DNA of 64,000 bases from Chiloscyllium plagiosum (GCF_004010195.1 NC_057718.1:90056837-90120836); one strand, 5' to 3'. Positions 2,212 to 56,658 are shown, counted from the stretch's first letter. Program-made: numbers and translations. Notes: a model not told the origin generated them from the letters alone.

Positions 2212-2236
2212 GACCCTTTCATCTTGCACTCATCAG
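2212..2236 (-). ncRNA. Degenerate hammerhead-like core (PLE family E)
   Basis: Minus strand reads CTGATGAGTGCAAGATGAAAGGGTC. Stem II is very weak. Confidence 0.4.
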
Positions 2237-2369
2237 AACTAGGATGCAAGAAGCAGAGTTGAAAAAAGAGCCCCATTTTATGTAGAGTAAGAAGAGTGTG
2301 CTGATTGGTTGGGCTATAATTGGCATGGAGATGCTGCAAGAGCAGTTAACTGTCAATCTTCATTGTCAG

Positions 2370-2544
2370 GCGAAAGTGAGGACTGCAGATGCTGGAGATT
2401 AGAGTCAAGAGTGTGGTGCTGGAAAAGCACAGCAGGTCAGACAGCATCTGAGGAGCAGGAAAATCAACATTTCAAGCAAAAACCCTTCATCAGGATGTTT
2501 TCCTGCTCCTTGGATGTTGCCTGAACTGTGCTTTTCCAGCACCA
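2370..2544. mobile_element. Short inverted PLE family A insertion
   Basis: Inverted arms. Perfect 16-bp TSD CAATCTTCATTGTCAG at 2354-2369 and 2545-2560. Confidence 0.85.
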
Positions 2545-3306
2545 CAATCTTCATTGTCAGACCAGGCAGGTAGATTCTGATTGGTCAGGACATTGCCAAG
2601 GAGTTTGACTGTCTCCGTGACTCCTCTATTTGATTAAAAAAATGCAATCTATGCACAAATTGCTTTTGCCTTTATAAAACAGGATCCAGTGTGTTTATTC
2701 CTACAGCTTCCAGCACTGCAAATGCATCAGAATGTGAGTGCAGCTGATGATCTTCAATTGGTCTCTGGTATAGCTCTAAATAGAGTCTGGATTATTCAGT
2801 AGGTGATTCCCTTTGGCAGAATCACATCTATTGGTAGATATATTTTTCTGAGGCTTGAAAACATAGGCCGTTTGAGCACATGTGGCATGATGCCAGCTAC
2901 AAATGGTCAACAGGATGAATTGTTTGTTATGGTCTGCCAGTCTTTGGGATGTACAGCATACATACCTGGCATCACTCTGGCATTGAAACTCATATAACAC
3001 ATCACTCATTTGTGTGGAGGTCAAAATGTCTTTTTGGCTTACAACAGGATCCTGTTCTTAGAGGAAACCACTTGTCGATTTATTGCATAGTTGCAGTATG
3101 AACCAGCCAGCTTCAACGAATCAAAGTTTTGAGATACCTTGCCCTTTCAGGGAAAGCTGAGGTAGACTGGCTACAGCTCAGAGCCAACAGTGATGGACTT
3201 GGTCCCTTTCGTGAGTTTGCACAATGATATGAAGAGTAATGATTTGCTCAAGATCTCCATTATCATGTGGGATAATGATTTGCTCAAGATCTCCATTATC
3301 AATTGG

Positions 3307-3722
3307 TGTCAGCCCAGATAATGAATTGAAGGTGTTAGCCCACTGTGTGCTACTGTCTGTGCACCTAACACCTTCAATACATTATCTGGGCTGACACCAA
3401 TTGTTAAAGTTCTCTTGAGAATGTAACTTTTTAAAAACGTTTTGCGATTTACATATGAAAGAAGTGAAACTAACATGATCATTCTAACAGATGAGAGACT
3501 TAACAAACAATCAAGGTATTTTTCAATGTATAATTTCAGTTACATCACACTGTAAACTTTTGCTATAAATTTTGTGTCCCCCAATCATGTACTCCACAAC
3601 CACCTGATGAAGGAGCAGCGCTCCGAAAGCTAGAGCTTCCAATTAAACCTGTTGGACTATAATCTGGTGTTGTGTGGTTTTTAACTTTGTCCACTCCAGT
3701 CCAACACCAGCATCTCCAAGTC
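3307..3722 (+). mobile_element. PLE family B 3' fragment with a short inverted 5' segment
   Basis: Homologous to 17056-18590. About 3307-3338 is the reverse complement of about 3366-3397. Contains a hammerhead core. Confidence 0.8.
3604..3632 (+). ncRNA. Minimal type-I hammerhead ribozyme core (PLE family B)
   Basis: CTGATGA A GGAGC-AGC-GCTCC GAAA GC TA. Confidence 0.7.
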
Positions 3723-3971
3723 CTGTGGAACTAACGCAGCGAATGAGATGTTTGACGTCCAAAAACCCCAGCCATCTTCCTATGAACTGGGAATGATCCC
3801 AAACTGCAGAGTGCTCTCCCTCACTTCACTTTCGCTCGAGCTGTTAATACCATACTCAGTGAAGTGCTTCAAATTGGAAATCAGGCCTGCTTTTCCTGTA
3901 CTCATCCCAAAAGTGAAGTATTTTATAAACATATGCAAAGTTCACCAATTTACATAGGTTTCAGACCCAGG

Positions 3972-4066
3972 ATTGAAAAATGTGTTGCTGGAAAAGCGCA
4001 GCAGGTCAGGCAGCATCCAAGGAGCAGGAGAATCGACGTTTCGGGCATAAGCCCTTCTTCAGGAAT
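3972..4066 (-). mobile_element. PLE family A single arm with an intact hammerhead core at 4035-4062
   Basis: Minus strand reads CTGAAGAAGGGCTTATGCCCGAAACGTC. Flanked by AGACCC(A/T)GGAT duplication. Confidence 0.8.
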
Positions 4067-4148
4067 TAGACCCTGGATGACATACAACAAAGACCAGGTT
4101 TCTGTACTTAACAACAATGACGATTTATTGTAAATCATAAGATCCTAG

Positions 4149-4382
4149 TTAAAAATCACACAACACCAGGTTATAGTCCAACAGGTTTAATTGGAAGCAC
4201 GCTAGCTTTCGGAGCGACGCTCCTTCATCAGGTGGTTGTCTTCATCAAGCATACTCCACAACCACCTGATGAAGGGGCAGCGCTATGAAAGCTAGTGCTT
4301 CCAATTAAACCTGTTGGACTATAACCTGGTGTTGTGTGATTTTTAGCTTTGTATACCCCAGTCCAACACCGGCTACTCCAAG
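4149..4382. mobile_element. Palindromic PLE family B insertion
   Basis: Inverted arms, intact core on the minus strand at 4203-4231. TSD TCATAAGAT(C/T)CTAG at 4135-4148 and 4383-4396. Confidence 0.85.
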
Positions 4383-4447
4383 TCATAAGATTCTAGGTAG
4401 TGGTAAACATTTATGAGACATCAACACCTAATTGTACTAGTTATCAC

Positions 4448-4925
4448 AGAGTCATAGTATTGTGCAGCATGGAAGCAAACATGCTGACCAGATATCCTAA
4501 GCTAATCCAGCCCCATTCGCCAGCATTTGGCCCATATCCCTTTAAGCCCTTCCTATTCATATACCCATCCAGATGCCTTTTAAGTTTGGATGGGTATATG
4601 AATAGGAAGGGTTTGGAGGGATATGGGCCGGGTGCTGGCAGGTGGAACTAGATTAGGTTGGGATATCTGGTCGGCATGGACAGGTTGGACCGAAGGGTCT
4701 GATTCCATGCTGCACATCTCTATGACTCTATGACTCTAAGTGTTATGATTGTATCAGCCTCCACCACTTCCTCTGGCAGCTCATTCCATACATGCACTAT
4801 TCTTAGGTCCCTTTTGTATCTTTCCCCTCTCACCTTAAACCTATGCCCTTTAGTTTTGGACTCTGCTACCCTGGCATTCACCCTATCCGTGCTCTTCATG
4901 ATTTTATAAACCTCAATAGCGTCAT
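4448..4925 (-). mobile_element. CR1/HER1 LINE 3' fragment with a second CR1 3' end (about 4586-4737) inserted in opposite orientation
   Basis: KGHRFKVRGERYKRDLR..WNELPEEVVEA peptide and (CTATGACT)n-type tails. Confidence 0.85.
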
Positions 4926-5685
4926 CTAACCCTACCTCTTCCACACACCAACACAGATACGCTCAGACAGGCACAAAAATAAAATGGATGCTGTGAGTAG
5001 ATGGAAAGACTGGGAAGGTGGTTCAATGGTCTCTGTCCATAGGGTTTTCTGAGATGATCCTTTTGACTTGTTAGAATGTTCTGTCCCTTGATCTTTCTTC
5101 TTTCGGTACTTTTGCTTGCAGGAGGCACGAGGTGACTGGTTCACACCTGTACAGTCTCTAACTTCTTAGTTAAAAGCCACAATTTATAGCAATGAATGAG
5201 GAAAGGTATGCTAGCTTTCTTCAGGCTTGAGGTGATTTTTAACGCAGAGAAAAGAGACTACTTCTTCCTTTTTCAGAGATCAGATAGCTTCTTACTAAAG
5301 GGTCACCCCCAGAATCTACTTGGGAGCCAGTCACGTTGATATTAGCAGTCAGAGGCCATTGGCAATAAGTCACCATTCCACAGACCAATCAGCTACCTGT
5401 TGCAAAGCGAACCTCCATTTGTACACACATCCTGTAACTAGACTCATCTGTAACTAGACTCTTTCTCCCCCCCCCCCCACCAACACCTCCCTGTTTGAAT
5501 AAACAGCACTTAAACTGAGTGTCACGTCATTTGTTTTTAAAAGTGGAGTAATCCTTTCCACACTAGTTACTTTTGAAAACAGTTCATTTTCCCTTTCAGT
5601 GCACAATCAGAAACAACATAAAAATGAAAAGACAAGGTCTTTACAATTCCCTGACATTTAAAGACCATACCTCTCAAGTTTTAAT

Positions 5686-5995
5686 AGAATCCCTACAGTG
5701 TGGAAACAGGCCATTTGTCCCGACAAGTCCACACTGACTCTCTGAAGAGTATCCCCAGACCCATTCCTCTACATTTCCCCTGACTAATGCAACTAACCTA
5801 CACACCCCTGAAGACTATGGGCCATTTAGCATTGCCAATTCACCTCATCTTTTGGGTTGGGGGAGGAAACTGGAGCACTCGGAGGAAACCCACGCAGATG
5901 TGAGGAGAATGTGCAAACTCCCACACACAGTTGCCCAAGGCTGGAATCGAACCTGGGTCCCTGGCGCTGTGAGGCAGCAATGCTGACCACTGAGC
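5686..5995 (-). mobile_element. HE1-type tRNA-derived V-SINE
   Basis: A/B-box-like tRNA head, V-domain (GGGTTTCCTCCGGGTGCTCCGGTTTCCTCCC), CR1-derived tail. Confidence 0.9.
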
Positions 5996-6784: not shown

Positions 6785-7425
6785 ATAAGATAATGAGAGG
6801 ATTAGATAGGGTGGACAGTAAGAGCCTTTTTCCTCAGATGGGGATGGCTAGCACGAGGGGATATAGCTGTAAATTGAAGGGTGTTAGATATAGGACAGAT
6901 GTCAGAGGTAATTTCTTTACTCAGAGAGTAATAGGGGCATGGAACGCACTGCCTGCAACAGTTGTAGACTCGCCAACTTTAAGGGCATTTAAATGGTCAT
7001 TGCATACACATATGGATGAAAGTTGGCTCAGCGGTTAGCACTGCTGCCTCACAGCATCAGGATCCCAGGTTCAATTCCAGCCTCGGGCAACTGTCTGTGT
7101 GGAGTTTGCATGTTCTCCCCATGTCTGTGTGGGTTTCCTCTGGGTGCTCCAGTTTCCTCCCACAGTCCAAAGATGTGCAGGTCAGGTGAATTGGCAATGC
7201 AAAATTGCCCATAGTGTTAGGTGCTTTAGTCAGAGAGAATGGGTCTGGGTGGATTACTCTTCGGAGGGTCGGTGTGGACTTGTTGGGCCGAAGGGCCTGT
7301 TTCTGCACTGTAGGGAATCTAATCTAAAATGGAATAGTGTAGGTTAAATTGGCTTCAGATTGATTTCATAGATTGACGCAACATCGAGGGCCAAAGGATC
7401 TGTACTGCGCTGTTATGTTCTATGT
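6785..7425 (+). mobile_element. CR1/HER1 3' fragment interrupted by an HE1 SINE (about 7023-7326, +)
   Basis: KIMRGLDRVD...TRGYSCKLKG...FFTQRVIGAWNALP peptide. The SINE splits the 3' UTR. Confidence 0.88.
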
Positions 7426-8685: not shown

Positions 8686-8739
8686 GAAATCAGAAACAAA
8701 AACAGAAAGTGCTAGAAAATCTCAATAGGTCTGTCAGCA

Positions 8740-9100: not shown

Positions 9101-9333
9101 GTTAAAATTTCAGATCCTGTGACCCTTCTTCAGAACTGGAAAAGGGTGGTTTTTATGCAAATAAATACAGGTCTTTTGTTTTAACAAAATGCTCTGAGAT
9201 TAGCGGAATATGGCATTCAATACCAAGGAAATTCCAAAAAGATATGACAGTGTGAACCGCATGTCCAGTTATAGTCAGGATTTTAAGGATGTAGTTTGCT
9301 CCATTTCACAAAGGTTTCCTTTTTATTTTCCAG

Positions 9334-9424
9334 TGGGTGAGGAACAAATCAGCTCAATAGGACGAGGTATCTGTGTGCTCCTCGGCATCTCGGTCGAAGA
9401 TACCCAGAAAGACATGGAGTATAT
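9334..9424 (+). CDS. DTD1: D-aminoacyl-tRNA deacylase 1, internal coding exon (equivalent to exon 2)
   Basis: ttttattttccag acceptor and GTGAGT donor. Translates (V)GEEQISSIGRGICVLLGISVEDTQKDMEY(M), matching vertebrate DTD1. 91 nt, phase 1 to phase 2. Confidence 0.96.
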
Positions 9425-9879: not shown

Positions 9880-10720
9880 ATGCATCACGACTTGATACGT
9901 CAACTGTTCTGCCCAGGACCATACAAAACTACAGCGAGTTCTAAACAAAGCCCAGTCCATCACACAAGCCAACCTTCCATCCATTGACTCAATGTACGCC
10001 TCTCGCTGCCTCGGGAAGGCAGCTGACATCGTCAAAGACCCCGAGGTAAAAACAATGACTGCAGATGCTGGAAACCAGATTCTGGACCAGTGGTGCTGGA
10101 AGAGCACAGCAATTCAGGCAGCATCCGATGAGCAGCAAAATCGACGTTTCGGGCAAAAGGGCTTTTGCCCGAAACGTCGATTTTGCTGCTCGTCGGATGC
10201 TGCCTGAATTGCTGTGCTCTTCCAGCACCACTGGTCCAGAATCTGGTTTCCAGCATCTGCAGTCATTGTTTTTACCTCGTTGATTTTAACCCTACTGCGA
10301 ATCCTCTTGCAAGGATGCCTGCCTGGAAGACGTTTTCCTCCTCTCTCTGGCTCTCTTGCCTTTATTCCTGATGAAGGGCTTTTGCCCAAAACGTCGATTT
10401 TGCTGCTCGTCGGATGCTGCCTGAATTGCTGTGCTCTTCCAGCACCACTGATCCAGAATCATCAAAGACCCCTCCCACCCCTGGTTATAATCTCTTCCAA
10501 CCTCTTCTGTCAGGCAGAAGATATAAAAACTTAAACACATGTACCGACAGATTCAAAAACAGCTTCAGCCTCATGTTTTGAATGAACTTCTCAAATTTAA
10601 TATTGATCTCACTCTTTCTGCACCTTCTCTACAGCCGTAACATTGTATTCCTCACTCCGTTCTGTTGCCCTAATGCACTTTGTATGGTGTGATCTGCCTG
10701 TACTGCATGCTGATGTGCCT
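9880..10720 (+). mobile_element. Rex1/Babar-like LINE 3' fragment interrupted by a PLE
   Basis: Peptide KLQRVLNKAQSITQANLPSIDSMYASRCLGKAADIVKDP / ..LFQPLLSGRRYKNL..RFKNSF, typical of the Rex1 ORF C-terminus. Confidence 0.75.
10042..10457. mobile_element. Young PLE family A composite: 238-bp near-perfect palindrome plus a partial tandem copy
   Basis: 10042-10279 is self-complementary and a third arm lies at about 10365-10457. Flanked by ATC(G/A)TCAAAGACCCC duplication. Confidence 0.9.
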
Positions 10721-12123: not shown

Positions 12124-12359
12124 GGTTCGCAAGATCCTGAACTTAAGGTTATTTGAGGATGAAAATGGGAAGCACTGGTGTAAGAGCGTGATGGACAAGC
12201 AGTACGAAGTTCTTGTGGTCAGTCAGTTCACGCTGCAGTGCATCCTGAAGGGTAACAAGCCGGATTTTCACTTGGCAATGGGAGCCGAACAGTCGGAGAC
12301 CTTCTACAACGGCTTGTTACAACACATCAGGAAGGCCTACAAACCTGAGTTGGTGAAAG
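12124..12359 (+). CDS. DTD1: DTD1 internal coding exon (equivalent to exon 3) with the SQFTL motif
   Basis: ttttacattag acceptor and GTATGA donor. Translates VRKILNLRLFEDENGKHWCKSVMDKQYEVLVVSQFTLQCILKGNKPDFHLAMGAEQSETFYNGLLQHIRKAYKPELVK. 236 nt, in frame with both neighbours. Confidence 0.97.
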
Positions 12360-12719: not shown

Positions 12720-13250
12720 AAAAACAGAAGCTGCTGGAAAAGCTCTGCAGGTGTGGCAGCATGTGTGGAGAGAAGTCAAAGTTAACAATTTGGGTTCAGT
12801 GACCCTTTTTCAGAACTGATGGTAGCTAGGAAAAGAATGTCTTTTATATAAAAGATAGGGTGGAGGAAGAGGGGAACAATAGGTAGAGGGAGAGCCTAAG
12901 GAGAGAGAAGATCAGTTGGATAGACAAAGGAGTGGATAATGATCAGCCTGGGAAAATGAACAGCTACTCATGGGGACAGTTAGTGACTAACAATAGGTTG
13001 TGTGTAGTAGCAGACCATGTGATAACAAGGCCTGGTGTGGAGGGGCTGGGGTAAGGACTTGGGCGAAGGTGCTTCAAGTCCTAAAGTTGTTGAACTCGAT
13101 TTTGAGTCCAGAAGGCTGTTGAGTTCCCCAGTGGAAAATGAGGTGCTGTTCTTCTCGCTTGTATCTGAACTTCGCTGGAACAGTTCAGCAAGCCTGCGAC
13201 GGACATGTTGGACAGGGGATGGGATGGGGTGGGGGTGGGGAGGTTTGCTG
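12720..13250 (-). mobile_element. Older PLE 3' fragment (family D)
   Basis: GIY-YIG C-terminal remnant, purine-rich tract, degenerate CTGAAAAAGGGTCACTGAACCCAAA core on the minus strand. Confidence 0.65.
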
Positions 13251-15790: not shown

Positions 15791-16478
15791 AGTGTCTAAT
15801 TGAGTAAGGAGGTACTGTTCCTCATTATTGTTGAGATTCATCAAAGCAGTGTCGGAGGTGGAGGACACAGGGAGTGAGTTGGAGGATAAAAATGACAAAG
15901 GACTGTAAACACAGGTACACCTACAGACAGTATAGAAAGCCCAGGGCTGGTTACTTTAAGCTTGGCTGGTATGTTCCTCACTGAAAGACATGAGGGGAGC
16001 CATTGTCATCCTTATTAACCAGGTAAAGGTGTGTTGTGGTAAAGGGCGATTAGACCCTTCAGTGATGGAAAGAGGAGAGGGCACCCCACAGTTGCTCTCC
16101 ATGTTTCCAGATGAGTGAGGATGGGAAATCTCCCATAATCCCAGTGAAAGTGCCCAGGATGATGGCTGTTCTGTCAGAACCCGAACCCATGTGGAAACAA
16201 GTCCTTTCTAGCATTGCAGAGAGAACAGACTCTCTGGAGTTCAGATTCTGGAGTTGTCACCTCGTTCCTGAGGAAGGGCTTAAGCTCGAAGCATCGATTC
16301 TCCTGCTCCTCGGTTGCTGCCTGACCGGCTGTGTTTTTCCAGCACCACACTTTTCGACACTGTTCACATCCTGCTTTGCTTAAAAATAACATTACAAAAA
16401 CACCCAGTCAGTGGAAGCTGAAAACTGTAAAGGTGGCGAGACTAAAAGTGATCATCTAAGAAAGGAGATGACTAAGTG

Positions 16479-16806
16479 GCGGCACGGTGGCACAGTGGTT
16501 AGCACTGCTGCCTCACAGCGCCAGAGACCCGGGTTCAATTCCCACCTCAGGCGACTGACTGTGTGGAGTTTGCACGTTCTCCCCGTGTCTGCGTGGGTTT
16601 CCTCCGGGTGCTCCGGTTTCCTCCCACAGTCCAAAGATGTGCAGGTCAGGTGAATTGGCCATGCTAAATTGCCCGTAGTATTAGTTAAGGGGTAAATGTA
16701 GGGGTATGGGTGGGTTGCGCTTCGGCGGGGCGGTGTGGACTTGTTGGGCCGAAGGGCCTGTTTCCACACTGTAAGTAATCTAATCTAATCTAATCTAATC
16801 TAATCT
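16479..16806 (+). mobile_element. Young HE1 SINE with (TAATC)n tail, 40 bp upstream of DTD1 exon 4
   Basis: Near identical to the reverse complement of 36608-36925. Confidence 0.93.
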
Positions 16807-16846: not shown

Positions 16847-16944
16847 ATGGCAAATTTGGAGCCTACATGCAAGTTCATATACAGAATGATGGCCCAGTCA
16901 CTATTGAATTAGAATCGCCCACCGGTCCCTCTGACCCTAAACAG
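16847..16944 (+). CDS. DTD1: DTD1 internal coding exon (equivalent to exon 4) with the Gly-cisPro NDGPVT motif
   Basis: ttctattctag acceptor and GTAAGA donor. Translates (D)GKFGAYMQVHIQNDGPVTIELESPTGPSDPKQ. 98 nt, ends in phase 0. Confidence 0.96.
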
Positions 16945-17055: not shown

Positions 17056-18590
17056 GTTAAAAATCACACAACACCAGGTTATAGTCCAACAGGTTTATTT
17101 GGAAGCACTTTTTTTAATTTCAAAAATATACTTTATTCATAAAAATATTTTGATGATCTGTACAATTGGTCATGCCATACCTATGTAAACATTCCATTTC
17201 TTTGCATACAGAGATCGAGTAAGCAAACATATATACAGGTCTGTACGTTTACTATGCATATATTTAGCTGAGGAGTCAACGGAGCCCACTTACTGCGTGG
17301 GCCCCCTGTTCTTAGGCAGGCAGACGTTACACGGTGGTATTTCCCCACCGCTCCTTGGCGGCAGCTGCCCCAAGCTTCAGCATGTTCCTCAACATGTAGT
17401 CCTGGACCTTGGAATGTGCCAGTCTGCAACACTCAGTCGGGGTCAGCTTCTTAAGCTGGAAGATCAACAGGTTTCTGACAGACCAAAGAGTGTCTTTCAC
17501 CGAGTTGATGATCCTCCAGGCACAGTTGATGTTCGTCTCGGTGTGCGTCCCGGGGAACAGGCCATACAGCACGGAGTCCTGTGTCACAGAGCTGCTTGGG
17601 ACAAACCTCGACAAGCACCACTGCATTCGTCTCCAGAATTCATTTGCGGAGGCCCATTCCAGAAGGAGGTGTGTGACAGTCTCGTCCCCTCCGCAGCCGC
17701 TTCGAGTCTGAGAGTCCGGGCGTGCATAAAGGATCTCACCGGCAGAGCCCTTCTCACCACCAGCCAAACCATGTCTTGGTGCTTGTTGGAAGATTCTGGC
17801 GATGAGGCATTCTGCCAAATGACTTTGACAGTCTGCCCAGGGAACCGCTCGACAGGATCCGCCCTCTCCTTTTCCCAAAGGGTCTTAAGGAAGCACTAGC
17901 TTTCGGAGCACTGCTCCTTCATCAGGCGGTTGTGGAGTATAAGATTGTAGGACACAGAACTTATAGCAAAAGCTCACAGTGTGATGTAACTGAAATTATA
18001 TATTGAAAAATACCTAGATTGTTTATTAAGTCTCATCTTTTCGAATGACCATGTTGGTTTTTGTTCTTTCATATGTAAATTCAAGAACTTTCTTAAAGTT
18101 ACATTCTCGAGTGAATTTTGACAATAGGTGCCATGTCAGCCCAGATAATGCATTGAAGGTGTGAGGTGCCCTGTATGAGGCTATCTGTGCCACAGTGTTC
18201 AGACTGATTCTAATCTAAAAAAAGGATTTACAGAATCTTATATGGATTCATGCAGTTTTTGAGCAAAATAAAGTGTAATTCTGCAAGTACAAATTCACCC
18301 CACAAACCTGTGTGTGTGTACATATGGATGTGTGTGCGTGGAGGGGGGTATTAATGTCTGTGAGACAGTGTGTGTATGAGTGTGAGTGTAAAGGAGTATA
18401 AGTCTGTGAGACGGTGCGTGTGTGAGTGTGGGAGTGTATGTGTGAGCGTATGAGAGAGGGTCTGCGAGAATGTATGGGTCTATAGGAGTGTGTCTGTGAG
18501 TGTGTGTCTGTCTGTATGTGTGCGTCTGTCTGTTCTATGTGTGTGAGTAGTGCAGTGGGGTCACCTGTATTGCGACATGTTCACATTTCT
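17056..18590 (-). mobile_element. PLE family B long 3' fragment with a TG-rich tract, interrupted by a Tx1/L1-like element
   Basis: Family B sequence resumes exactly after the insert. Intact hammerhead core at 17897-17925 (minus). Confidence 0.85.
17110..17888 (-). mobile_element. 5'-truncated L1/Tx1-clade LINE (ORF2 C-terminal zinc-finger region, 3' UTR, polyA)
   Basis: WLVVRRALPVRSFMHAR..GCGGDETVTHLLLE peptide. AATAAA plus A-tail on the minus strand. TSD GGAAGCACT at 17101-17109 and 17889-17897. Confidence 0.85.
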
Positions 18591-21039: not shown

Positions 21040-21650
21040 GCTGAGGAAAGCTTACTGACAATGCACTGCACTGTCAGAATCACCAACTTTCCAGCCAGGT
21101 GTTTGACTCGAGACCCTGTCTGCTTGAGTTAATGTCTAAGGGAATTCCTAGAAGCATGGCTTTCCAGCCAGAACTCTATCAACAAACACATCGAGTTAGA
21201 CCCCATCTACCACCCCCTGAGAAAAGGAACAGGAAGTTACTTCACCACAGGAAATAACATCACTGAAGGAAATGACATCAACAACCCAAGCAGGAATTTT
21301 CAGCATTGCTTCGCCTGAGGCCCACTGAAGGTGTTATCTAGTAGGGTAACGAAACGTCTGGAAATGAACCTTGCAGCTCAGTGAGCAAACCTCCATCCAA
21401 ATCCCCAACCTGAGCTACGAATCTTCTCAAACCTTGATATCTCAGAGCCTGTGGCACTACTTTGAAGGAGAACAGAGGAGTTATCCCTGATTTACCCTTA
21501 ATGGGAACCACCCTAAACAGGTTACCTACTCACCTGGCTGTTTGCCTGCTGTACTATAATGATTACACAAGTATTTCATTGGTTGTAAAGCTCTTTGAAA
21601 CGTCCAGAGGTTGCTACATAAATGTAAGCTTTTGTTTTTTGCCTCTGCAG
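21040..21650 (+). mobile_element. Ancient Deu-domain-like SINE remnant split by PLE family C
   Basis: GCACTGCACTGTCAGA...CCCTGTCTGC / GGCACTACTTTGAAGGAGAACAGAGGAGTTATCCCTG...ATTTCATTGGTTGTAAAGC resembles the SacSINE1/AmnSINE1-type body, from memory. Confidence 0.5.
21141..21432 (+). mobile_element. PLE family C 3' fragment with a hammerhead-like core at 21325-21358
   Basis: Peptide EFLEAWLSSQNSINKHIELDPIYHPLRK is a PLE ORF end. Core reads CTGAAGG T GTTATCT-AGTA-GGGTAAC GAAA CG TC. Confidence 0.75.
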
Positions 21651-29799: not shown

Positions 29800-31250
29800 T
29801 CATTTAAGAGGCATTTGGATGGGTATATGAATAGGAAGGGTTTGGAGGGATATGGGCCGAGTGCTGGCAGATGGGGATAGTATGGGTTGGGATATCTGGT
29901 CGGCATGGACGGGCTGGACCGAAGGGTCTGTTCCCATGCTGTACATCTTTATGACTTAGATATGATGCAGAGCTGGGCCGAGGAGTGGCAGATGGAGTTC
30001 AACCCTGCCAAGTGTGAGGTTGTCCATTTTGGAAGGACAAATAAGAATGCGGAATACAGGGTTAACGGTAGGGTTCTTAGTGAGGTGGAGGAACAGAGGG
30101 ATCTTGGGGTCTATGTTCATGGATCTTTGAAAGTTGCCACTCAGGTGGATAGAGCTTGTAAGAAGGCCTATGGTGAATTAGCGTTCATTAGCAGAGGGAT
30201 TGAATTCAAGAGCCGTGAAGTGATGTTNNNNNNNNNNNNNNNNNNNNNNNNNNNNNNNNNNNNNNNNNNNNNNNNNNNNNNNNNNNNNNNNNNNNNNNNN
30301 NNNNNNNNNNNNNNNNNNNNNNNNNNNNNNNNNNNNNNNNNNNNNNNNNNNNNNNNNNNNNNNNNNNNNNNNNNNNNNNNNNNNNNNNNNNNNNNNNNNN
30401 NNNNNNNNNNNNNNNNNNNNNNNNNNNNNNNNNNNNNNNNNNNNNNNNNNNNNNNNNNNNNNNNNNNNNNNNNNNNNNNNNNNNNNNNNNNNNNNNNNNN
30501 NNNNNNNNNNNNNNNNNNNNNNNNNNNNNNNNNNNNNNNNNNNNNNNNNNNNNNNNNNNNNNNNNNNNNNNNNNNNNNNNNNNNNNNNNNNNNNNNNNNN
30601 NNNNNNNNNNNNNNNNNNNNNNNNNNNNNNNNNNNNNNNNNNNNNNNNNNNNNNNNNNNNNNNNNNNNNNNNNNNNNNNNNNNNNNNNNNNNNNNNNNNN
30701 NNNNNNNNNNNNNNNNNNNNNNNNNNNNNNNNNNNNNNNNNNNNNNNNNNNNNNNNNNNNNNNNNNNNNNNNNNNNNNNNNNNNNNNNNNNNNNNNNNNN
30801 NNNNNNNNNNNNNNNNNNNNNNNNNNNNNNNNNNNNNNNNNNNNNNNNNNNNNNNNNNNNNNNNNNNNNNNNNNNNNNNNNNNNNNNNNNNNNNNNNNNN
30901 NNNNNNNNNNNNNNNNNNNNNNNNNNNNNNNNNNNNNNNNNNNNNNNNNNNNNNNNNNNNNNNNNNNNNNNNNNNNNNNNNNNNNNNNNNNNNNNNNNNN
31001 NNNNNNNNNNNNNNNNNNNNNNNNNNNNNNNNNNNNNNNNNNNNNNNNNNNNNNNNNNNNNNNNNNNNNNNNNNNNNNNNNNNNNNNNNNNNNNNNNNNN
31101 NNNNNNNNNNNNNNNNNNNNNNNNNNNNNNNNNNNNNNNNNNNNNNNNNNNNNNNNNNNNNNNNNNNNNNNNNNNNNNNNNNNNNNNNNNNNNNNNNNNN
31201 NNNNNNNNNNNNNNNNNNNTGTTCTATGTTCTATGTTCTATGACTATGAC
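29800..31250 (+). mobile_element. CR1 3' end followed by a young CR1 RT fragment running into the gap, with a (GTTCTAT)n tail after the gap
   Basis: WAEEWQMEFNPAKCEVVHFG...QRDLGVYVHGSLKVATQVD peptide. Confidence 0.9.
30228..31220. other. Assembly gap (993 N)
   Basis: Run of n characters. Confidence 1.
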
Positions 31251-34709: not shown

Positions 34710-34934
34710 GAGGAGAAAGTGAGGTCTGCAGATGCTGGAGATCAAAGTTGAAACTCTATTGCTGGAACAGCACAGCAGGTCAGGCAGCATCCAGGGAACA
34801 GGAGATTCGACGTTTCGGGCACAGGCCCTTCTTCAGGAATCATTCCTGAAGAAGGGCCTGTGCCCGAAACGTCGAATCTCCTGTTCCCTGGATGCTGCCT
34901 GACTTGCTGTGCTGTTCCAGCAATAAAGTTTCAA
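34710..34934. mobile_element. Young palindromic PLE family A insertion with two intact hammerhead cores
   Basis: Cores at 34809-34836 (-) and 34846-34873 (+). Perfect TSD CACCCCTCAACCTG at 34696-34709 and 34935-34948. Confidence 0.92.
34846..34873 (+). ncRNA. Minimal type-I hammerhead ribozyme core (PLE family A)
   Basis: CTGAAGA A GGGC-CTGT-GCCC GAAA CG TC. Stem I is AUUC/GAAU from the flanks. Confidence 0.72.
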
Positions 34935-34969
34935 CACCCCTCAACCTGACATATTGTTAACGTAGTGGA

Positions 34970-36607: not shown

Positions 36608-36925
36608 TAGATTAGATTAGATTACCAGATTAGATTACATTACAGTATGGAAATAGGCCCTTCGGCCCAACAAGTCCACACCGACCCGCCGAAGCGCAAC
36701 CCACCCATACCCCTATACCTAACACTACGGGCAATTTAGCATGGCCAATTCACCTGACCTGCACATCTTTGGACTGTGGGAGGAAACCGGAGCACCCGGA
36801 GGAAACCCACCCAGACACGGGGAGAACGTGCAAACTCCACACAGTCAGTCGCCTGAGTCGGGAATTGAACCCGGGTCTCTGGCGCTGTGAGGCAGCAGTG
36901 CTAACCACTGTGCCACCGTGCCGCC
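36608..36925 (-). mobile_element. Young HE1 SINE
   Basis: Consensus match with (GATTA)n tail. Confidence 0.93.
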
Positions 36926-37789
36926 GTGTTTTGGTTACTGTGAGTTAATTCACCTGGGGAATTTAACTGATTATCTGATATTAAAAGTGGTACAAATAGA
37001 ATCATAGCATCCCTACAGTACAGCTTCAGGCCATTCTGCCCATTGAGTCTGCACCGATCCTCTGAAGAGCATCCTACCCAGAAATAGAGTTGGAACTGTA
37101 ATCCTCATGTGTAGCTTTGTAAACAAAAGCTCATAAAAGTGTGTAAAGATTGGCTCAGCTCTATCTTTCACTTCCTAGCTTCCTGGAATATAACACTTCT
37201 CAGCACCGAATCTTAAAAAGAGATGTTGATGTGGGTAAACGATAGCTCAGTCAGAGTACCGTTCAAGGAGGAGGGACAGAAAGCTTCAGGCAAGACAGAT
37301 GCTTTAAACATCTTCTGACTTTGGCCACCTTGTTTTAGGTTCAGCCTGGGAGAAGGACTGACTCACTTGTGATTGTCTGACGTTGTTGAAGGCTAGCTTC
37401 TGTTCACCTGTGAGAAAGCAGCCAATAAATGGCATGGATGTATTGGTTGTGTGTAAGTACTAGTACACTGTATTCTCTTCCCATGCCTGGTCTAGCTGCA
37501 GTGCCGATTCCAATCCAGACCCCTGAAATGTGGAGTGAGATAACTCCGGTGTTTAAGGACAGGATACCCGGCTCCCCCACCCCTGCTCAGCTTCCCTGCT
37601 TCCACCTTCTCCCAAAGAGTTTGGTATTATTCTTTCCGTTATGGGTAAGTCACCACAAGTTACCTTTAATTCGGCTACTTATTAAGAAATCTCACAATCA
37701 AGTACTGAAACAGGGATTTAAACTTTACTGCATGTAGCAACCAAAATAAGGCAACAAGTTAAGCCTCACAACCCAACTTGGCTATTATA

Positions 37790-38341
37790 TGAACACCTCT
37801 GGGACACCCGGACAAACCAACCCAACCACCCTGTGGCTCAACACTTTAACTCCCCCTCCCACTCCACCAAGGATATGCAGGTCTTTGGACTCCTCCACCG
37901 CCAGACCACAACAACACGACGGTTGGAGGAAGAGCGCCTCATCTTCCGCCTGGGAACCCTCCAACCACAAGGGATGAACTCGGATTCCACCAGTTTCCTC
38001 ATTTCCCCTCCCCCCACCTTGTCTCAGTCAAATCCCTCGAACTCAGCACCGCCTTCCTAACCTGCAATCTTCTTCCTGACCTCTCCGCCCCCACCCCAGT
38101 CTGACCTATCACCCTCACCTTGACCTCTTTCCACCTATCACATTTCCGACGCCCCTCCCCCAGGTCCCTCCTCCCTACCTTTTATCTTAGTCTGCTGGAC
38201 AAACTTTCCTCATTCCTGAAGAAGGGCTTATGCCCGAAACGTCGATTCTCCTGTTCCTTGGATGCTGCCTGACCTGCTGTGCTTTACCAGCAACACATTT
38301 TCAGCTCTGATCTCCAGCATCTGCAGACCTCACTTTCTCCT
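37790..38341 (+). mobile_element. PLE family A 3' fragment: GIY-YIG C-terminus, 3' UTR and intact hammerhead core at 38216-38243
   Basis: EHLWDTRTNQPNHPVAQHFNSPSHSTKDMQVFGLLHRQTTTTRRLEEERLIFRLGTLQPQGMN links family A to a PLE endonuclease. Flanked by CTATTAT(A/C)TGA duplication. Confidence 0.9.
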
Positions 38342-38919: not shown

Positions 38920-39395
38920 GTTATAGAATCTCTACAGTGTAGAGACAGGCCATTTGGCCCAACAAGTCCACACCAACCCTCTGAAAAATATCTCACCCAG
39001 AATAATGCCTGACTAATGCACCTAACCTACACATCCCTGAATGCTATGGGGCAATTTAGCATGGCCAACTCACCTAACCTACACATCCCTGAATGCTAAG
39101 GGGCAATTTAGCATGGCCAACTCACCTAACCTGCACATTCCTGAATGCTATGGGGCAATTTAGCATGGCCAACTCACCTAACCTACACATCCCTGAATGC
39201 TATGGGGCAATTTAGCATGGCCAACCCATCTAACCTACACATCCTTGGACTGTGGGTGAAACTAGAGCACCCGGAGGAAACCCACACAGACACGGGGAGA
39301 ATGTGCAAACTCCACATGGTCTCCTGAGGCTGGAATTGAACCCAGGTCCCTGGCGCTGTAAGGCAGCAGTGCTAACCACTAAGCCACTATACGGC
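38920..39395 (-). mobile_element. HE1 SINE with an internal 52-bp tandem expansion
   Basis: Four units at 39021-39228. Confidence 0.9.
39021..39228. repeat. Tandem repeat, 4 x 52 bp
   Basis: Unit CCTAACCTACACATCCCTGAATGCTATGGGGCAATTTAGCATGGCCAACTCA. Confidence 0.92.
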
Positions 39396-42792: not shown

Positions 42793-43102
42793 GGGCGGCA
42801 CCCGTGGTTAGCACTGCTGCCTCACAGCGCCAGAGACCTGGGTTCAATTCCCGCCTCAGGCAACTGTCTGTGTGGAGTTTGCACATTCTCCCCGTGTCTG
42901 CGTGGGTTTCCTCCGGGTGCTCTGGTTTCCTCCCACAGTCCAAAAATGTGCAGGTTAGGTGAATTGGCCATGCTAAATTGCCCTTAGTGTTAGGTGAAGG
43001 GGTAAATGTAGGGGAATGGGTCTGGGTGGGTTACGCTTTGGAGGGTCAGTGTGGACTTGTTGGGCCGAAGGGCCTGTTTCCACACTGTAAGTAATCTAAT
43101 CT
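42793..43102 (+). mobile_element. HE1 SINE
   Basis: Consensus match. Confidence 0.92.
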
Positions 43103-43814
43103 TAATATTACCTTTCGGAAGAAACAATCTTCCAGGTCTAAGCCTGATCAATTTGTAAAAGGAAAGGCTTTTTCATAGAGGCATTGAGATCTACAGCATA
43201 GACAAACAGCCTTTGGCCCATTGTGGAGTCAAGTCCCACTTGCTTTGGAAGTGAGATCACGTCTCTCTCCTTTAAGGACATTGGATGCGGTTCACAGGAG
43301 GATTATGAGATTGGTACCTCGAATGAGTGGGTTGACTTATGAAATGTAGAAAAATGTAGAAGAATGAGGGTCGATTTGATTGAAGTTAATGGGTGGAATT
43401 TGATGGGGGCCTGAGTGGCGTGAGGTGAGATGAGATCTGTGGCAGAGTCAGATGAAAAGGAGTGTGGTCAAGTGTACCGCAACACTGGGAGAATCTCACT
43501 CCATCTTCTGTGCTTTTGCTGAGCGATGAGGGGAGTTTATCACGAGACAGAATTAGTTTGCCTTTGAACGAGGCATTTAAAGGAACTCGAATCCCCTTAA
43601 CTCCTCAGCCCCCTCTTTAACGTTCAGCTCCCTGTCTTAACGAGTGAGTCGAGCAAACAAGACATTGAGCTTTGGGAGTGAGAGTGGAGGTCCCTGGCAA
43701 TTCTAGCTCACCGTTTGCTTCAAAGGATCTCCATAGGACCCAGCAACAGCACAGGGCACCATCCTCGGGCATATTGCCCACAGACATTGGCATCTGACCC
43801 CCTATTGACCATCG

Positions 43815-46463: not shown

Positions 46464-46490
46464 TCATGTCGTGATATCTACAATAAAGAC

Positions 46491-46653
46491 CAACAGGTTT
46501 AATTGGAAGCACTAGCTTTCGAAGCGCCGCTCCTTCATCAGGTGGCGCTCTGAAAGCCAGTGCTTCCAATTAAACCTGTTGGACTCTGACCTGGTGTTGT
46601 GTCATTTTTAACTTTGTACACCCCAGTCCAACACCGGCATCTCCAAATCGTGA
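46491..46653. mobile_element. Palindromic PLE family B insertion
   Basis: TSD CTACAATAAAGAC at 46478-46490 and 46654-46666. Core at 46513-46541 (-). Confidence 0.88.
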
Positions 46654-48484
46654 CTACAATAAAGACTGGGGTTTACGTTATGTCACTACTGATTGGAAGT
46701 TCCAGTAGCATTGCTAATGTGACTATGTGTTTTGCTCTGCTGAATTTGTTCGTGACTCCTCTTTGATGAATGTGACCCACCACCCAGATTGCTCTGTGCT
46801 TAATTAAGACACTCCCTACAGCAAAATGCCCACTGACGAAGGTGCAGTTGAGCTGTGAGGTTGCAGGGTGCAGCAGTGCTCCATCACGAGAATCTGAATC
46901 TCCTGAGGCATCGGTGCCCCTGTGTATGGGATTGCTGGTCACCTGGTAGTCAATCCAGTGTCGGAGTGTGGCATCCTCCCATTGACATCTGAGTGCCCAT
47001 CCTCTATGGAAGGGCATGTGACTACTGGTGCAGCCGCAACTGGGGGATGGTGTCCAATTTCCCACACCCCAAGCAGAGATGGGTGGCGAGCTTATTCTGA
47101 ATGCTGGGAATATTGACGTACAGCTGAAGGGCTGGTCAGGTGAAGGGGCCTCCAAGTTGGCAAATTGGTATTCAACCTGCCAACCGCTTTCTGAGGGAAG
47201 GAGCACTTTGTAGTCGGCCTGCCCTTCAGTGTAACTATTCAAAGCTTTTAAAATTCTAATGCACCACACTCTTATTTGTTCAGAGACACAGTGTGTGGGA
47301 CAGCTCCCTTATGGGCATTGAGGAACTTCCATGAGAAAAATCCTCTTCACTACCTTCCCAAATGATTGTCTTTCTATCTCAGCCACAGGGTTCCTGACTT
47401 CTGCATCAAGTGTTTGCTTGAGAACTTCAGAAGTCGTTTGGAGATTTGGGCTCCACGGTGTTTATCCAAATTTCAACCTTCCTCAGCCTCAAAAGCCTTC
47501 CTTCGCCAACCAGGTCAGACCCCACCCATCCCGGCTGTCATTTTATGTCACGTGGCTTGAAGGAACTCTAGTTACTACCCTTGGAGAAATGAAAAAAGGG
47601 AAATAATGAAAAGAAACATTCAGACCAAGTGTCAACATAATGCATTGCGTCGCTGCAGACCGTAGTTTCTCTTTGATTCCCAGCCTTTGGATTTGATGTT
47701 CATTTCAGACATAGCACTTAACAATCAAATAGGCTCCAGTCATCAGTGATTTTAATTATGAGCTTATCTGTTCTTCGTCTGTTCTTCATTTGCTGAAATG
47801 AGGAGCATTTTGGATTTATAGAAATAGTTGAAAAGATTGAAACAAGACATAGGAGTGTAGCATTTCGGCGAGTTATTGTGGAGGAAAACCATGGGCTGTA
47901 GAGTCAATTTTCTCGTTTTACTGATGTTACCATCAAATTCTGACATGCTTAATTTTGTCAACAGCATGCAATTTGGAAAAGATGTAACAAAAAAAAGAGT
48001 TGAAATGAAAGGATAAACTTGACTCGATGTGAAGGTGAATTGGAAAATATCATGGAATCCTTTTTTTTCCAAGTGCTCTTGACGATGAGATGTTCCATTT
48101 TAGTTTGATGCAGGTGAAGAGTTCAGTGCATCTATTAATACCATGTTAATTTGAGTCATTGTGGATCAGTGTATTGGAGTTTAGGCTGTATATTAAACTC
48201 TGCTTTGTCTCCGCAGCAGTGTACTTGACCTTAATCCCACACCGCAAGATTAAAATTCCTGGATGTGGTCTGTATTTTCACTTTCTCTTCAGGGCTAACA
48301 TCCTTCAGCCACTGAACTGCTAAAGCAGAACACAAAACGGCACTTTTATATCAGCGTTTTCAATGAGGTGGATCATACATATATAGTTGCTTCAAGGGTG
48401 AAGGTCATTGGAGTCTAGAGTTCACTGCCTGAAGGGAAGGTTGAGTCAGAAAATCTCATAACATGTAAGCAAGTGTTTACATTT

Positions 48485-49299: not shown

Positions 49300-50025
49300 G
49301 CATGCCAAACAGCATAAGCAACAAGTGATTGACAGAGTTTAATATGGACAACCAGCAGGTCAGATCGAAGGTTTGCAGTTCTGCCATGTCCAGACATGAA
49401 TGGGTATGGACGATTAAACAACTGACCAGGAGATACTGGTTTCTGAAATAGCCCCATCCTCAATGATGGAAGAACATGGCACATCGCTACAAACGATAAG
49501 GCTGAAGCTTTCGCTGCAATCTTCAGCCAGAAGTGCTGAGTGGATGATCCATCTTTGTTTCCTCCAATGGTCCCCCATTATCACAGATACAGTCTTCAGC
49601 CAATTTGATTCACTCCATGTGATATCAAGAATTAGTTGGGGCTACTGGATATTCCAAAATCCTTGACAAAATTTCAGCAATAATACTGAAAGCTTGTCAC
49701 AATAATACATGAAAACTTGTTACTCCCTTAGCTCCAACAAAGAGCTCGATGCCATCCAGGACAAAGCATCCCGCTTGATTGGCACCATATCCACAAACAC
49801 CCACTCCCTCCACCACCGACGCTCAGTTGCAGCCGTGTGTGCTATCTACAAGATGCACTGCAGAAGTATACCAAGTCTCCTTAGACAACACCTTCCAAAC
49901 CTATGATCATCATGATCTAGGAGGACAAGGGCAGCAGATACATGGGAACATTCCCACTTGGAAGTCACCATCCTGGCTTTGAAGTATATTGCTGTTCCTT
50001 CACTGTCACTGGGTTAAAATCCTCT
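49300..50025 (+). mobile_element. Fragments of the second LINE family
   Basis: ELDAIQDKASRLIG...SLHHRRSVAAVCAIYKMHC, an RT C-terminal peptide. Confidence 0.72.
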
Positions 50026-50044
50026 TGTGCCAATAGACCCTACG

Positions 50045-52362: not shown

Positions 52363-52458
52363 TCATTCCTGATGTAGGGCTTTTGCCTGAAACATCGATT
52401 TTCCTGCTCCTTGGATGCTGCCTGACCTGCTGTGCTTTTCCAGCACCACTCTAATCGA
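52363..52458 (+). mobile_element. PLE family A single arm
   Basis: Flanked by GACAATGAACCCA duplication. Confidence 0.8.
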
Positions 52459-53560: not shown

Positions 53561-54271
53561 TCGCCAGAAACTCCTAAGAGACCTTGGGCAGGAATTTAAC
53601 CCATTCCTCCTCCTTTGATGAAATGAGGCAGGTGGGCGTGAATGTATGTGTGACCGAGCTGGCACTACCTGCCCCTGATGTGGGATCAGTAGCTGAAGGG
53701 GTACTCAGTCACAAGCAGGGGATAGCCAATCAGAATGGGGCTGTTGACTGGTCCATTGAATCCTATTGTTAGAGGCTGCCTGGGATCTTCCAGTTGGCTT
53801 GCAGTGTTCCTGCAATTGGAGACAGACCAGGGGTGAGGATATTGATGGGGAGCGGGAGGTGGGGGGGAAGCAGCTACTGCTCCAGACTGACTTATCTGCC
53901 TTGTGTGTGTGACAGTCAGAAGGACAGACTCATGTTAGATGCGCTGTTGTAATGAGTTATTAACCCATTCAAGCGGACCGAATGAAAAACCTGGCAGGGG
54001 TTACGAAGAGCATTGCTTAATGCCTTGGCCAGATGATTTCAAATAAATCAAGGGACGGGGAATGAAATTTTAGCAAGCGTAATGAGTTTTCCTGTCATCA
54101 GTTTGACTGCATGGGGATTATCATCGGATTACTTACAGGATGGTGAAGTACAAAATCGGAACATTGTCTCGGCAAAGGTCTGTTTGGGTTTTGCAGAAGA
54201 TATAGTAGAATTGTGGTAATACGGATCAGGAGGGTCCTGTGTGTGAGGGGTACGGAATATAATGTAGAACT

Positions 54272-54667
54272 TGGAGGCTGAGGGGTGACCTTATAGAGGT
54301 TTACAAAATTATGAGGGGCATGGATAGGGTAAATAGGCAAAGTCTTTTCCCTGGGGTCGGGGAGTCCAGAACTAGGGGGCATAGGTTTAGGGTGAGAGGG
54401 GAAAGATATAAAAGAGACCTAAGGGACAACTTTTTCACACAGAGGGCGGTACGCGTATGGAATGAGCTGCCAGAGGAAGTGGTGGAGGCTGGTACAACTG
54501 CAACATTTAAGAGGCATTTGGATGGGTATATGAATAGGAAGGGTTTGGAGGGATATGGGCCGGGTGCTGGCAGGCGGGACTAGGTTGGATTGGGATATCT
54601 GGTTGGCATGGACGGGTTGGACTTAAGGGTCTGTTTCCATGTTGTACTTCTCTATGACTCTATGACT
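54272..54667 (+). mobile_element. Young CR1/HER1 3' fragment
   Basis: Open C-terminal frame and (CTATGACT)n tail. Confidence 0.9.
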
Positions 54668-55192
54668 TTGTCTGAGTGAACTAATTCAAAGCAAAGGAGA
54701 TAGTAAATAATATTAGTGGGTACTAGTGTGAACTTGCCTCCAAAAGGGTATTTTACCTAATGTAGTGATGTTTATGTTATTCCCTATAACATAAGGCATT
54801 GAGTGTAGACCTTGTGGTATTGAAGAATCCAACAGACATTTCTTACAATTAAACATTATATAGAAACATTGCATTGCTCAGGCACATAAGTGTCTGGGCT
54901 AGTATTAAGCTACTCATTTACAGTAGAAGTGCATGCTGTTAGTGGAGCATCATGCTTCAACTGATCCAAGGTAAGGTGGTGTATGAGATCTTCATAGCCC
55001 CTGGTCACATGAAATGATGATATCCTGACTATGTCTCTTATATGCACACTGACGTACTGACTGTGAGACATAACACACCAGGGATGGGTGAGATTGATGT
55101 AATAACGTAAAGAACTGCTGGAGAAATTCACCAGGTCTGGCAGCATCTGTGGAGAGAAAACAGAGTGAACATTTTGAGCAGGATTGATGCCT

Positions 55193-55331
55193 GATAAAAC
55201 TTAGTGTGCCAGATAAACTGTGAATGTACCAGGTAAACCATAAGGATACCTGATAAACCATTAGGCTACCAGATAAACTGTGAGAGTACCAGGTAAGCTA
55301 TAAGTTTACCAGGTAAACTGTAAGGATACCG
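55193..55331. repeat. Diverged 20-bp tandem repeat (about 7 units)
   Basis: Units such as GATAAACTGTGAATGTACCA and GGTAAACCATAAGGATACCT. Confidence 0.8.
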
Positions 55332-56451
55332 GACAGAGAATAACAATGGAGAAAATGACAGCTAGGGAAAGTAGTGAGGAGGTCTTACTGATGATACAAA
55401 GAGAACACAATTAGCTTTGGACTCTCACCATGACAAACGAATGTGCGAAGAGGTTGCAATGTTAAAGTGCTGTTAGATGGACAGATGGATAGAAGGGGAT
55501 GATGAGGATTAAAAAGAGGATGCTTCACAGTTACCTGAAGAATGGATGGTCATATGAAGAACTGAGGAGAGAAACAGATGACTGAACTCATTTGGAGATG
55601 GGGATTGACCCTGCCACATCTTAGCCTGATTGAAGGCTGGTTATAGAAGTGTTTGTTTTTTTGTCCTGTTTTGTTTGTTCATCACTTTCTAGCAAGAAAA
55701 AACAAAAGGCTAATATGAATTTGTACTGAACTTAATGCCAAAGAGGTGTGAAAATGCACCTTTTCTTCAGAGATGGCATCAGATTCCATTACATAGCCAT
55801 TACATGAGTTGAATCTTTCTCCATCCCAAAAGTCAATTATATTCAATAAGCGCGAGTCGACTCTCAGTCAGGTATAAGCTGAAAGCTAATGGCATTGATT
55901 TCATGCTACCCCGAGATCATGTCTCAATACTGAAACTCAATGTTATTTTCAGATCCCTCCTTTGCCCTCCATCCTTACTCTTAATCTTCAATAATTCTGG
56001 TGACTTGTGCATCCTCGATTTTAATCATTCCACTATTGGTTGCTGTATTTTGAGCTAATGAGGCTGTGAAACCCGCTCCCCTCCCCCCCCCAAACCTCTC
56101 CAGCTCTCTTTTTGTCTGTTCCCCATGAGCATGTTATCTCATGCATAAATGTTACAATGAGGATATGATTTTTTTTTGGGGCTATTATGTGTTTTGGTGT
56201 ACAATTCACACCAAAGTTTAAGACGCATCAGGTCAGTGTCAGGTGACAACCTCCCTTTGTGTGCAGCTCAGCTGAGCTCAGTTCCTCTGTAGCACTTGTG
56301 GGAACTATTACTGTAACTTGTTGTGGTTTTTTTTCTTTATTTGTTTAGATGTCAATTAGGCTACTACTAATGACACGGTACTTTGGACTGTAGCATGAAT
56401 TTCAGCCCATCAAAAGTAGTATCCATGTAATAGTGAACCACATAAATTTAA

Positions 56452-56658
56452 GATAAAAATCACACAACACCAGGTTATAGTCCAACAGGTTTAATTGGAA
56501 GCACTAGCTTTCGGAGCGATGCTCCTTCATCAGGTGATAGTGAAGGAGCGACTCTCCGAAAGCTAGTGCTTCCAATTAAACCTGTTGGACTATAACCTGG
56601 TGTTGTGTGATTTTTAACTTTGTCCACCCCAGACCAACACCGGCATCTCCAAATCGTG
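56452..56658. mobile_element. Palindromic PLE family B insertion
   Basis: TSD ACATAAATTTAA at 56440-56451 and 56659-56670. Intact core at 56505-56533 (-). Confidence 0.88.

Follow-up and report, generated by a model that had tools for sequence, protein, structure and literature searches.

Minimal hammerhead motifs of Penelope-like retrotransposons in DTD1 introns of the shark Chiloscyllium plagiosum

We analysed 64,000 nucleotides (nt) of the shark Chiloscyllium plagiosum (GCF_004010195.1 NC_057718.1:90056837-90120836; this whole stretch is called the window), which lie within the gene DTD1, and found ribozyme-like motifs that are very probably minimal type-I hammerheads in the pseudo-long terminal repeat (pLTR) of endonuclease-bearing Penelope-like element (PLE) retrotransposons, present as scattered copies now decaying. 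Judged by their coding remnants, families A and B fit Neptune-type elements and family C a Poseidon-type element. In these three families the ribozyme-like motifs are real and of a kind already described; the host group is new, and the finding adds sharks to the known list of PLE hammerheads. A sequence-only reading had called them the shark versions of such ribozymes, and DTD1 exon 3, 100% identical over 78 aa to a Chiloscyllium protein, agrees with that origin.

Cores and the elements that carry them

Cores were sought with a strict descriptor (full core, paired stem II, palindromic stem III, at least 2 bp of stem I), the scored core positions being C3 U4 G5 A6 N7 G8 A9, G12 A13 A14 A15 and U16 H17; offsets such as -4 or +82 are counted from C3. 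The descriptor matched 7 sites in the window and none in any of 20 dinucleotide shuffles; with one core mismatch allowed, there were 9 window matches against 1 match across 8 shuffles. The positions proposed earlier for four family A, five family B and one family C core carry the described sequence, and the copies in the window are as follows (dot, no single strand).

4035..4062 (-): family A minimal hammerhead, intact, antisense (sequence and descriptor)
38216..38243 (+): family A minimal hammerhead, intact, sense, predicted cut after 38243 (sequence, descriptor, folding)
37785..38340 (+): 3' end of a family A PLE, with the C-terminal part of the GIY-YIG frame (37785-38054), 3' untranslated region, hammerhead and tail to +125
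34712..34935 (.): head-to-head family A insertion, cores 34809-34836 (-) and 34846-34873 (+)
10368..10395 (+): subfamily A2 core, G12 altered
3604..3632 (+): family B minimal hammerhead, core intact, sense, middle stem I pair broken
3564..3569 (+): TATAAA box, 40 nt before C3 of that family B copy
4147..4388 (.): head-to-head family B insertion, cores 4203-4231 (-, core intact) and 4266-4294 (+, stem II damaged), target duplication
17897..17925 (-): family B minimal hammerhead, intact, antisense
46484..46656 (.): family B fold-back insertion, core 46513-46541 (-), junction within stem II, target duplication
56450..56662 (.): family B fold-back insertion, core 56505-56533 (-), target duplication
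21142..21434 (+): 3'-terminal piece of a Poseidon-type PLE of family C; its core, 21325-21358, has G in place of A9
2211..2236 (-): family D core, degenerate, with a TATA-like box at 2277-2282
12784..12813 (-): degenerate core of family E, older and related to A; stem I has 4 bp, and TATATAAA stands 37 nt upstream
9104..9133 (-): degenerate family E core whose 3' side has given way to another repeat

The nine listed A and B cores have every type-I core position, as do genome copies of C (257) and of D; the window copies of C and D do not. The family C copy was correctly placed at 21325-21358; its A9, kept in 12 of 13 family C cores from other loci, has become G, and its TATA segment is deleted. 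A degenerate family D core was also rightly suspected (2211-2236, U16.1 and the stem III palindrome lost), while for family E, announced without coordinates, 12784-12813 and 9104-9133 are only likely candidates. Short stem I pairings occur, as had been noted, and lack the middle pair in the B copies at 3604 and 4203, which miss the strict descriptor solely on this account; the B core at 46513 has a G-U pair in stem II. The antisense B copy at 17897..17925 keeps more than 400 nt of native upstream sequence and is cut off on its 3' side by another insertion.

Stem II differs totally in sequence between families (GGGC/GCCC, GGAGC/GCUCC, GUUACC/GGUAAC) with pairing kept, the first stem I pair in A, B, C and D is C-G, C-G, A-U and U-A, and all catalytic positions are identical across four families with wholly different stems. 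Stem II does stay paired while its loop varies, as first described, but it is constant inside each family, altered yet paired stems being seen only between families, so loop variation marks subfamilies and is not covariation. That these are chance motifs is scarcely credible and is refuted for A to C by the empty strict shuffles, by reversed-pattern controls that gave 0 genome matches and by stem I pairs that differ yet pair; the one loose match of the sort chance would yield, at 49509-49526 (-) in the antisense strand of a LINE-like (long interspersed nuclear element) frame that is presumably CR1, was rejected as a hammerhead family and treated as chance. Rfam gave no hammerhead on the window at the gathering threshold or at E<=5; its 28 matches at E<=5 were set aside as microRNA (miRNA)-like and other chance matches on fold-backs. 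Positions 4525-4633, a near-perfect fold-back in a different abundant repeat (D6/D18), are the source of several of the chance miRNA matches.

A G10.1-C11.1 pair is present, and the self-complementary stem III tetramer described for A to C is there (palindrome 15.2-16.2, ACGU in A and C, AGCU in B), with AAGCUU in the D copies L074 and L076; in the literature such a stem III is a 4-bp helix forming only between two cores. The extra nucleotide after CUGANGA, between A9 and G10.1, is likewise found in A, B and C, and in E as well, with none in D. The accessible parts of Cervera 2014 (PMC4209133) describe PLE minimal hammerheads with the same core, extra nucleotide, G10.1-C11.1 pair, palindromic 15.2-16.2 and short helix I, in mostly single dispersed copies and opposite-strand pairs; stem II is 7-8 bp there and 4-5 bp in A and B, and sharks go unnamed in the results and discussion available. 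The statement that PLE hammerheads cleave as dimers holds in kind and less so in strength: dimer activity is in print, but it is weak in the passages of PMC4209133 consulted, cleavage in the anole PLE is protein-assisted and dispensable for insertion in vitro (PMC11167929), and one of nine frog hammerhead dimers was active according to the portion seen of bioRxiv 10.64898/2026.07.22.740005. The role of PLE hammerheads is stated to be open in the passages at hand of PMC7761336 and PMC8557442.

The assignment to PLE-type minimal hammerheads is borne out by what lies upstream, since the cores of A, B and C are located 3' of PLE reading-frame remnants, in the pLTR position, downstream of GIY-YIG coding remnants and in B and C also of reverse transcriptase (RT) remnants. 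In the family C piece L008, Pfam finds RVT_1 (E=7.5e-8) and GIY-YIG (E=4.7e-5) upstream of the core, and no cysteine linker separates RT and endonuclease, fitting Penelope/Poseidon. In the family B piece L069 the frames comprise an RT region, a linker and a GIY-YIG-like part, with 67-79% identity to shark proteins, seven of which match the piece over most of its length (15 matches from 19 candidates). For family A, L101 yields GIY-YIG (PF01541, E=1.4e-5), and L036 holds a C-x4-C-x2-C linker. RT together with GIY-YIG was found in broken copies only, by Pfam in C and by motifs and homologues in B, and A has linker and GIY-YIG only. Because of the CX2-5CxxC-type linker before GIY-YIG, A and B would fit the Neptune/Nematis definition; the consulted passages of Craig 2021 (PMC8557442) give Neptune elements this linker before a C-terminal GIY-YIG, tails and inverted 5'-truncated copies, and extend the linker to Nematis, so that it is not Neptune-only. 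The endonuclease pieces of A and B are 34-38% identical and share the Neptune-type cysteine linker, and E, an older relative, shares nucleotide sequence with A; to call the families unrelated was an overstatement. Shark proteins named septin, PPP1R12A-like, receptor-like, IQCK and RING (P0128-P0134) hold pieces of the family B endonuclease region, through either exonisation or annotation error.

In family C, A9, the extra U and G10.1 form an ATG opening a frame of about 35 codons to the element end, the extra nucleotide being the U of this start (window 21331-21435, +; L002-L014); the window copy has lost the family ATG because of its A9 to G change. The Poseidon element PAc of Anolis (Frangieh 2024, PMC11167929) is alike: it has an ATG where stem II begins, it ends about 105 nt further on, its tail is optional and its copies are made from uncleaved RNA. 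It differs in being biochemically tested and in giving no start site relative to the ribozyme in the main text, and A and B lack an ATG frame.

Family D is a real dispersed family (40/40 scored candidates matched) with a 1-2-bp stem II and a loop II complementary to 7 nt upstream of stem I (window 2198-2252, -; L073-L077), and may be a pseudoknotted minimal hammerhead. No covariation supports the pseudoknot: 24 genome matches show decay without compensatory changes. The portions seen of Perreault 2011 (PMC3088659) and Zhan 2024 (PMC11300833) describe pseudoknotted hammerheads with a comparable 1-2-bp stem II and a loop complementary to a 5' segment; D differs in lacking the extra helix IV and in a stem III that is still minimal.

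Conservation was measured on copies found by alignment and not chosen for their core (44 A, 19 B), with CpG and loop positions excluded. In A, 10/352 core positions differ from the best reference against 132/1,531 tail positions (p=7e-5), and the core is unchanged in about half of the copies (21/44 A, 9/19 B). A subfamily comparison on loci picked for an intact core was not used because it is circular for the core. With base composition uncontrolled, the pattern is consistent with selection on the elements while active and neutral decay afterwards: the elements would have kept their ribozymes intact by selection while multiplying, and copies would have been scattered as 5'-truncated and head-to-head fragments that then decay.

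Several points count against this account. No RT was seen in the examined pieces of family A; Pfam returned 0 families on the family B pieces; the frame upstream of the D core gave no Pfam family and no homologue, its link to PLEs being one of resemblance; unselected B copies show no conservation of core over tail (4/152 vs 23/676, p=0.8); and site-specific self-cleavage is predicted only.

Insertion ends and a possible transcript start

Exact cores number 86,254 in A, 16,739 in B and 257 in C genome-wide, in all about 103,000 or one per 34 kb, compared with about 4,000 in coelacanth and 9,000 in Xenopus in the accessible text of PMC4209133, where the search methods differ. This copy number makes the genome a very large natural sample of PLE insertion ends. 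A and B ends were measured on contig C1, where leaving out 3 head-to-head partners from the first 42 listed A and the first 41 listed B cores gave 40 loci per family; junction counts rest on these 80 loci from the start of one contig and on 84 copies in the window and locus flanks, a set from which central query matches, edge matches and matches short of +70 were dropped.

Copies begin within the 10 nt before C3 in 24/40 A and 18/40 B; per base, ends there are 6.9 (A) and 9.9 (B) times as frequent as at more distant upstream positions (tested against a constant rate, p=4e-9 and 3e-10). Among the unselected copies 31/56 A and 8/28 B begin at -12 to +2, a peak that old subfamilies with divergent upstream sequence may inflate. 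The flanks of short copies are mutually unrelated, and a target duplication of at least 8 nt accompanies 7/22 non-inverted short copies against 0.9% in controls. In 73/80 A and B copies the 3' end lies either at about +82 to +100 or at about +118 to +127; two classes 30-40 nt apart indicate an optional PLE tail, and C also shows two end classes. The pile-up of 5' ends is a solid observation in a limited sample, and its explanation is unproven. A pile-up at the cleavage site, such as cleaved RNA would give as template, was not seen: 2/56 A and 1/28 B unselected copies begin at +26 to +34.

A TATA-type box stands about 35-47 nt upstream of C3 in four families: TATAAA at -36 to -40 in 17/21 long B copies (elsewhere 3 times in 6,369 nt), TATAA at -47 in 10/13 C cores, and a TATA-like box in both D (-46) and E (-37). 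Transcription starts about 30 nt past a TATA box, an established spacing that would put the first RNA base at or just before stem I; the initiator consensus and the cap-G signature are likewise general background. We infer that the element's RNA polymerase II transcript may start 4-17 nt before C3, with stem I made of the first bases of the RNA, a reading on which we are evenly divided. Short copies would then be run-off complementary DNAs of uncleaved RNA primed at a 5'-proximal site. In the anole element uncleaved RNA is reverse transcribed from an internal start about 110 nt beyond the ribozyme (PMC11167929), and such priming at the transcript's first pLTR copy would give products of 90-130 nt. 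Cleavage, when it occurs, would remove a capped leader of 30-50 nt and would not release unit-length RNA; if the pile-up does mark the transcript start, it offers a concrete model of 5'-end self-decapping instead of unit-length or circular RNA release.

The start site meets several objections. The clearest pile-up is that of family A, in which a forward TATAAA is absent (0/14 long copies), and the C TATA overlaps the stop codon region. No G excess was found at 5' junctions (17/41 vs 12.7 expected, p=0.10) and no untemplated G at junctions fixed by target duplication (0/7), and most of the G's that had suggested a cap by eye stem from inverted arms or the target; with no cap-derived G found, the start site stays conditional. 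In a shark RNA run 2,350/12,955,460 reads fall on the A element in both orientations, 58 of them at >=99% identity, and show no site where many molecules start or end, which fragmented libraries would hardly show. In run X19 the top 5' loose end lies at 38212 (-4; 112 reads) and was dropped as support because subfamily A2 diverges from the reference copy there, making it not independent. In run X15 three contig joints link the 38243/38246 region to 38212 (-4), with 1-2 letters between, each ending in G. Family A also carries TTATC at -34 to -36 in 12/14 long copies, shared across otherwise divergent subfamilies (window 38181-38187), at the place where family E has TATATAAA.

The pile-up might instead arise during copying, if RT pauses at, or changes template on reaching, a ribozyme that is folded (or dimerised and bound by protein), or if microhomology between the element's ATT and an AT-rich target favours second-strand joining; this is a serious contender, held at a little under even. 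Six of seven junctions fixed by target duplication overlap the element by 1-4 nt, four of them within ATT/AAT, ATT is the preferred site of the anole endonuclease (PMC11167929), the ends of 22 adjacent inverted arms are spread between -15 and +30, and the missing cap-G points the same way. Yet a structural block should stop RT 3' of stem II, and only 4/56 unselected A copies end at +3 to +25 against the 31/56 at -12 to +2; and in B the pile-up occupies -5 to -11, a stretch that lacks ATT and follows the TATA box by about 30 nt.

Adjacent inverted arms accompany 11/40 A copies (one N-masked locus set aside) and 11/40 B copies, and target duplications are present at all 5 head-to-head window pairs checked. 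In the insertion at 34712..34935 both arms begin at the A four bases before C3, with a 14-bp target duplication, and the whole is predicted to fold into a single long hairpin. Elsewhere, L136 holds a fold-back B unit duplicated head to tail and L140 an inverted A arm joined to a B core. The fold could have been kept for a non-catalytic job, as a palindromic dimerisation signal for a dimeric PLE protein or as a translation-start structure, which we consider unlikely. The scarcity of copies beginning at +26 to +34 shows that inserted copies derive from uncleaved RNA, about 11/40 copies per family have the head-to-head arm, and catalytic mutants were without effect on insertion in vitro for a protein predicted to be a dimer (PMC11167929). 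But every catalytic position, beyond the palindrome, is the same in four families with different stems, the anole core cleaves with protein, and Naiad PLEs make inverted insertions without canonical hammerheads in the passages at hand of PMC8557442.

The short 90-130-nt copies might also be a self-propagating non-autonomous element, retrozyme- or SINE-like (short interspersed nuclear element), which appears quite improbable. The copy number is huge, and non-LTR retrozymes with type-I hammerheads, one set from a cartilaginous fish genome, are traced to pLTRs in the part available of bioRxiv 10.64898/2026.07.22.740005. Those form tandem head-to-tail units, whereas window copies are single or head-to-head and not in head-to-tail arrays; the promoter region upstream is moreover missing from the short copies, whose flanks are unrelated and whose 5' ends vary, and they carry the same subfamily marks as long copies.

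Extending the start-site reading, we tentatively propose that the vertebrate PLE hammerhead may be the 5' end of a capped transcript, with a 2-4 bp stem I from its first bases, cleavage as protein-gated decapping, a palindromic stem III that pairs two RNAs head to head for a dimeric RT-endonuclease, and family D perhaps stabilised by a pseudoknot. If true, this would explain half of the roughly 100,000 copies as 90-130-nt run-offs and would account for head-to-head junctions on the ribozyme. A start at the ribozyme cannot hold for all PLEs because in Drosophila, according to the sections seen of PMC2377424 and PMC4209133, the promoter is TATA-less and transcription begins some 120 nt upstream of the ribozyme (46 nt and an intron of 75 nt). 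As far as the consulted sources go, the pLTR promoter, rotifer pLTR TATA and initiator, and head-to-head palindromes are already in print; the accessible passages on Adineta Penelope pLTRs (Arkhipova 2013, PMC3846280) likewise have TATA and initiator-like sequence in the pLTR and head-to-head palindromic junctions, but ascribe the junctions to self-priming on antisense RNA and mention no connection with a ribozyme or with a hot spot of truncation. In the literature searched, with most subscription papers and Repbase/Dfam out of reach, no paper names shark PLE hammerheads by family or links copy 5' ends to the ribozyme edge. Lunse and co-workers are said to have treated metazoan PLE minimal hammerheads in 2017.

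The DTD1 setting and neighbouring features

The placement of the copies in DTD1 introns stands, given the positions of exons 2-4 on the plus strand and the flanking exons.

9334..9424 (+): DTD1 exon 2, 100% match to P0002 residues 15-45, AG/GT ends
12124..12359 (+): DTD1 exon 3, PF02580 E=7e-21, 100% to P0002 46-123
16847..16944 (+): DTD1 exon 4, next coding exon about 144.5 kb further

Exon 1 lies 5.5 kb before the window, and the coding sequence ends with an exon near window position 161,450; the window is wholly inside DTD1, and every copy is therefore intronic. No backing was found for a role specific to DTD1, within whose pre-mRNA the sequence-only reading has sense copies transcribed. 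The arms are 19 sense and 17 antisense (p=0.87, no strand bias), and three of the nine listed A and B cores are sense. These intact sense cores, 3604, 34846 and 38216, lie kilobases apart; 34846 is locked in a fold-back hairpin and 3604 has a broken stem I, leaving 38216 as the sole intact sense core with two adjacent stem I pairs and free of a fold-back. When nine sense cores were folded in a 331-nt context, the stem II probability was 0.0 in the four from head-to-head pairs, including 34846, which are predicted to be buried in long hairpins, and intermolecular stem III was computed at only -3.1 to -4.5 kcal/mol. None of the A-element RNA reads is attributable to this intron. The DTD1 location looks incidental, and the copies in its pre-mRNA would be passengers, unlikely to cleave and almost never doing so.

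Regulation of DTD1 by intronic hammerheads that the host has domesticated, along the lines suggested for the RECK and C10orf118 ribozymes, is an idea we find very improbable. In its favour, every copy is intronic, exact B cores in the window number 4 against 0.3 expected from the genome mean, and family A sequence occurs in shark RNA reads. Against this, 3 of the 4 exact B cores are antisense to DTD1 and strand bias is absent; 38216 is 96-98% identical to 39 other loci and therefore young; and at a genome-wide density of one exact core per 34 kb, some copies are bound to fall in introns. Intronic hammerheads of the RECK/C10orf118 type have a monomer-competent fold with a stable stem III, which the window cores lack.

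A second PF02580 match, about 100 residues without a stop, lies at G000:C10:73001932-73002255 (-), a DTD paralogue. The window also contains abundant tRNA-like SINE copies, which we take to be HE1-like, at 7024-7332, 16478-16793, 36641-36925, 42797-43109 and elsewhere, one pair being 97% identical, in inverted orientation and 20 kb apart. A 52-nt tandem array occupies 39007-39266, and a 992-base run of N spans 30228-31219.

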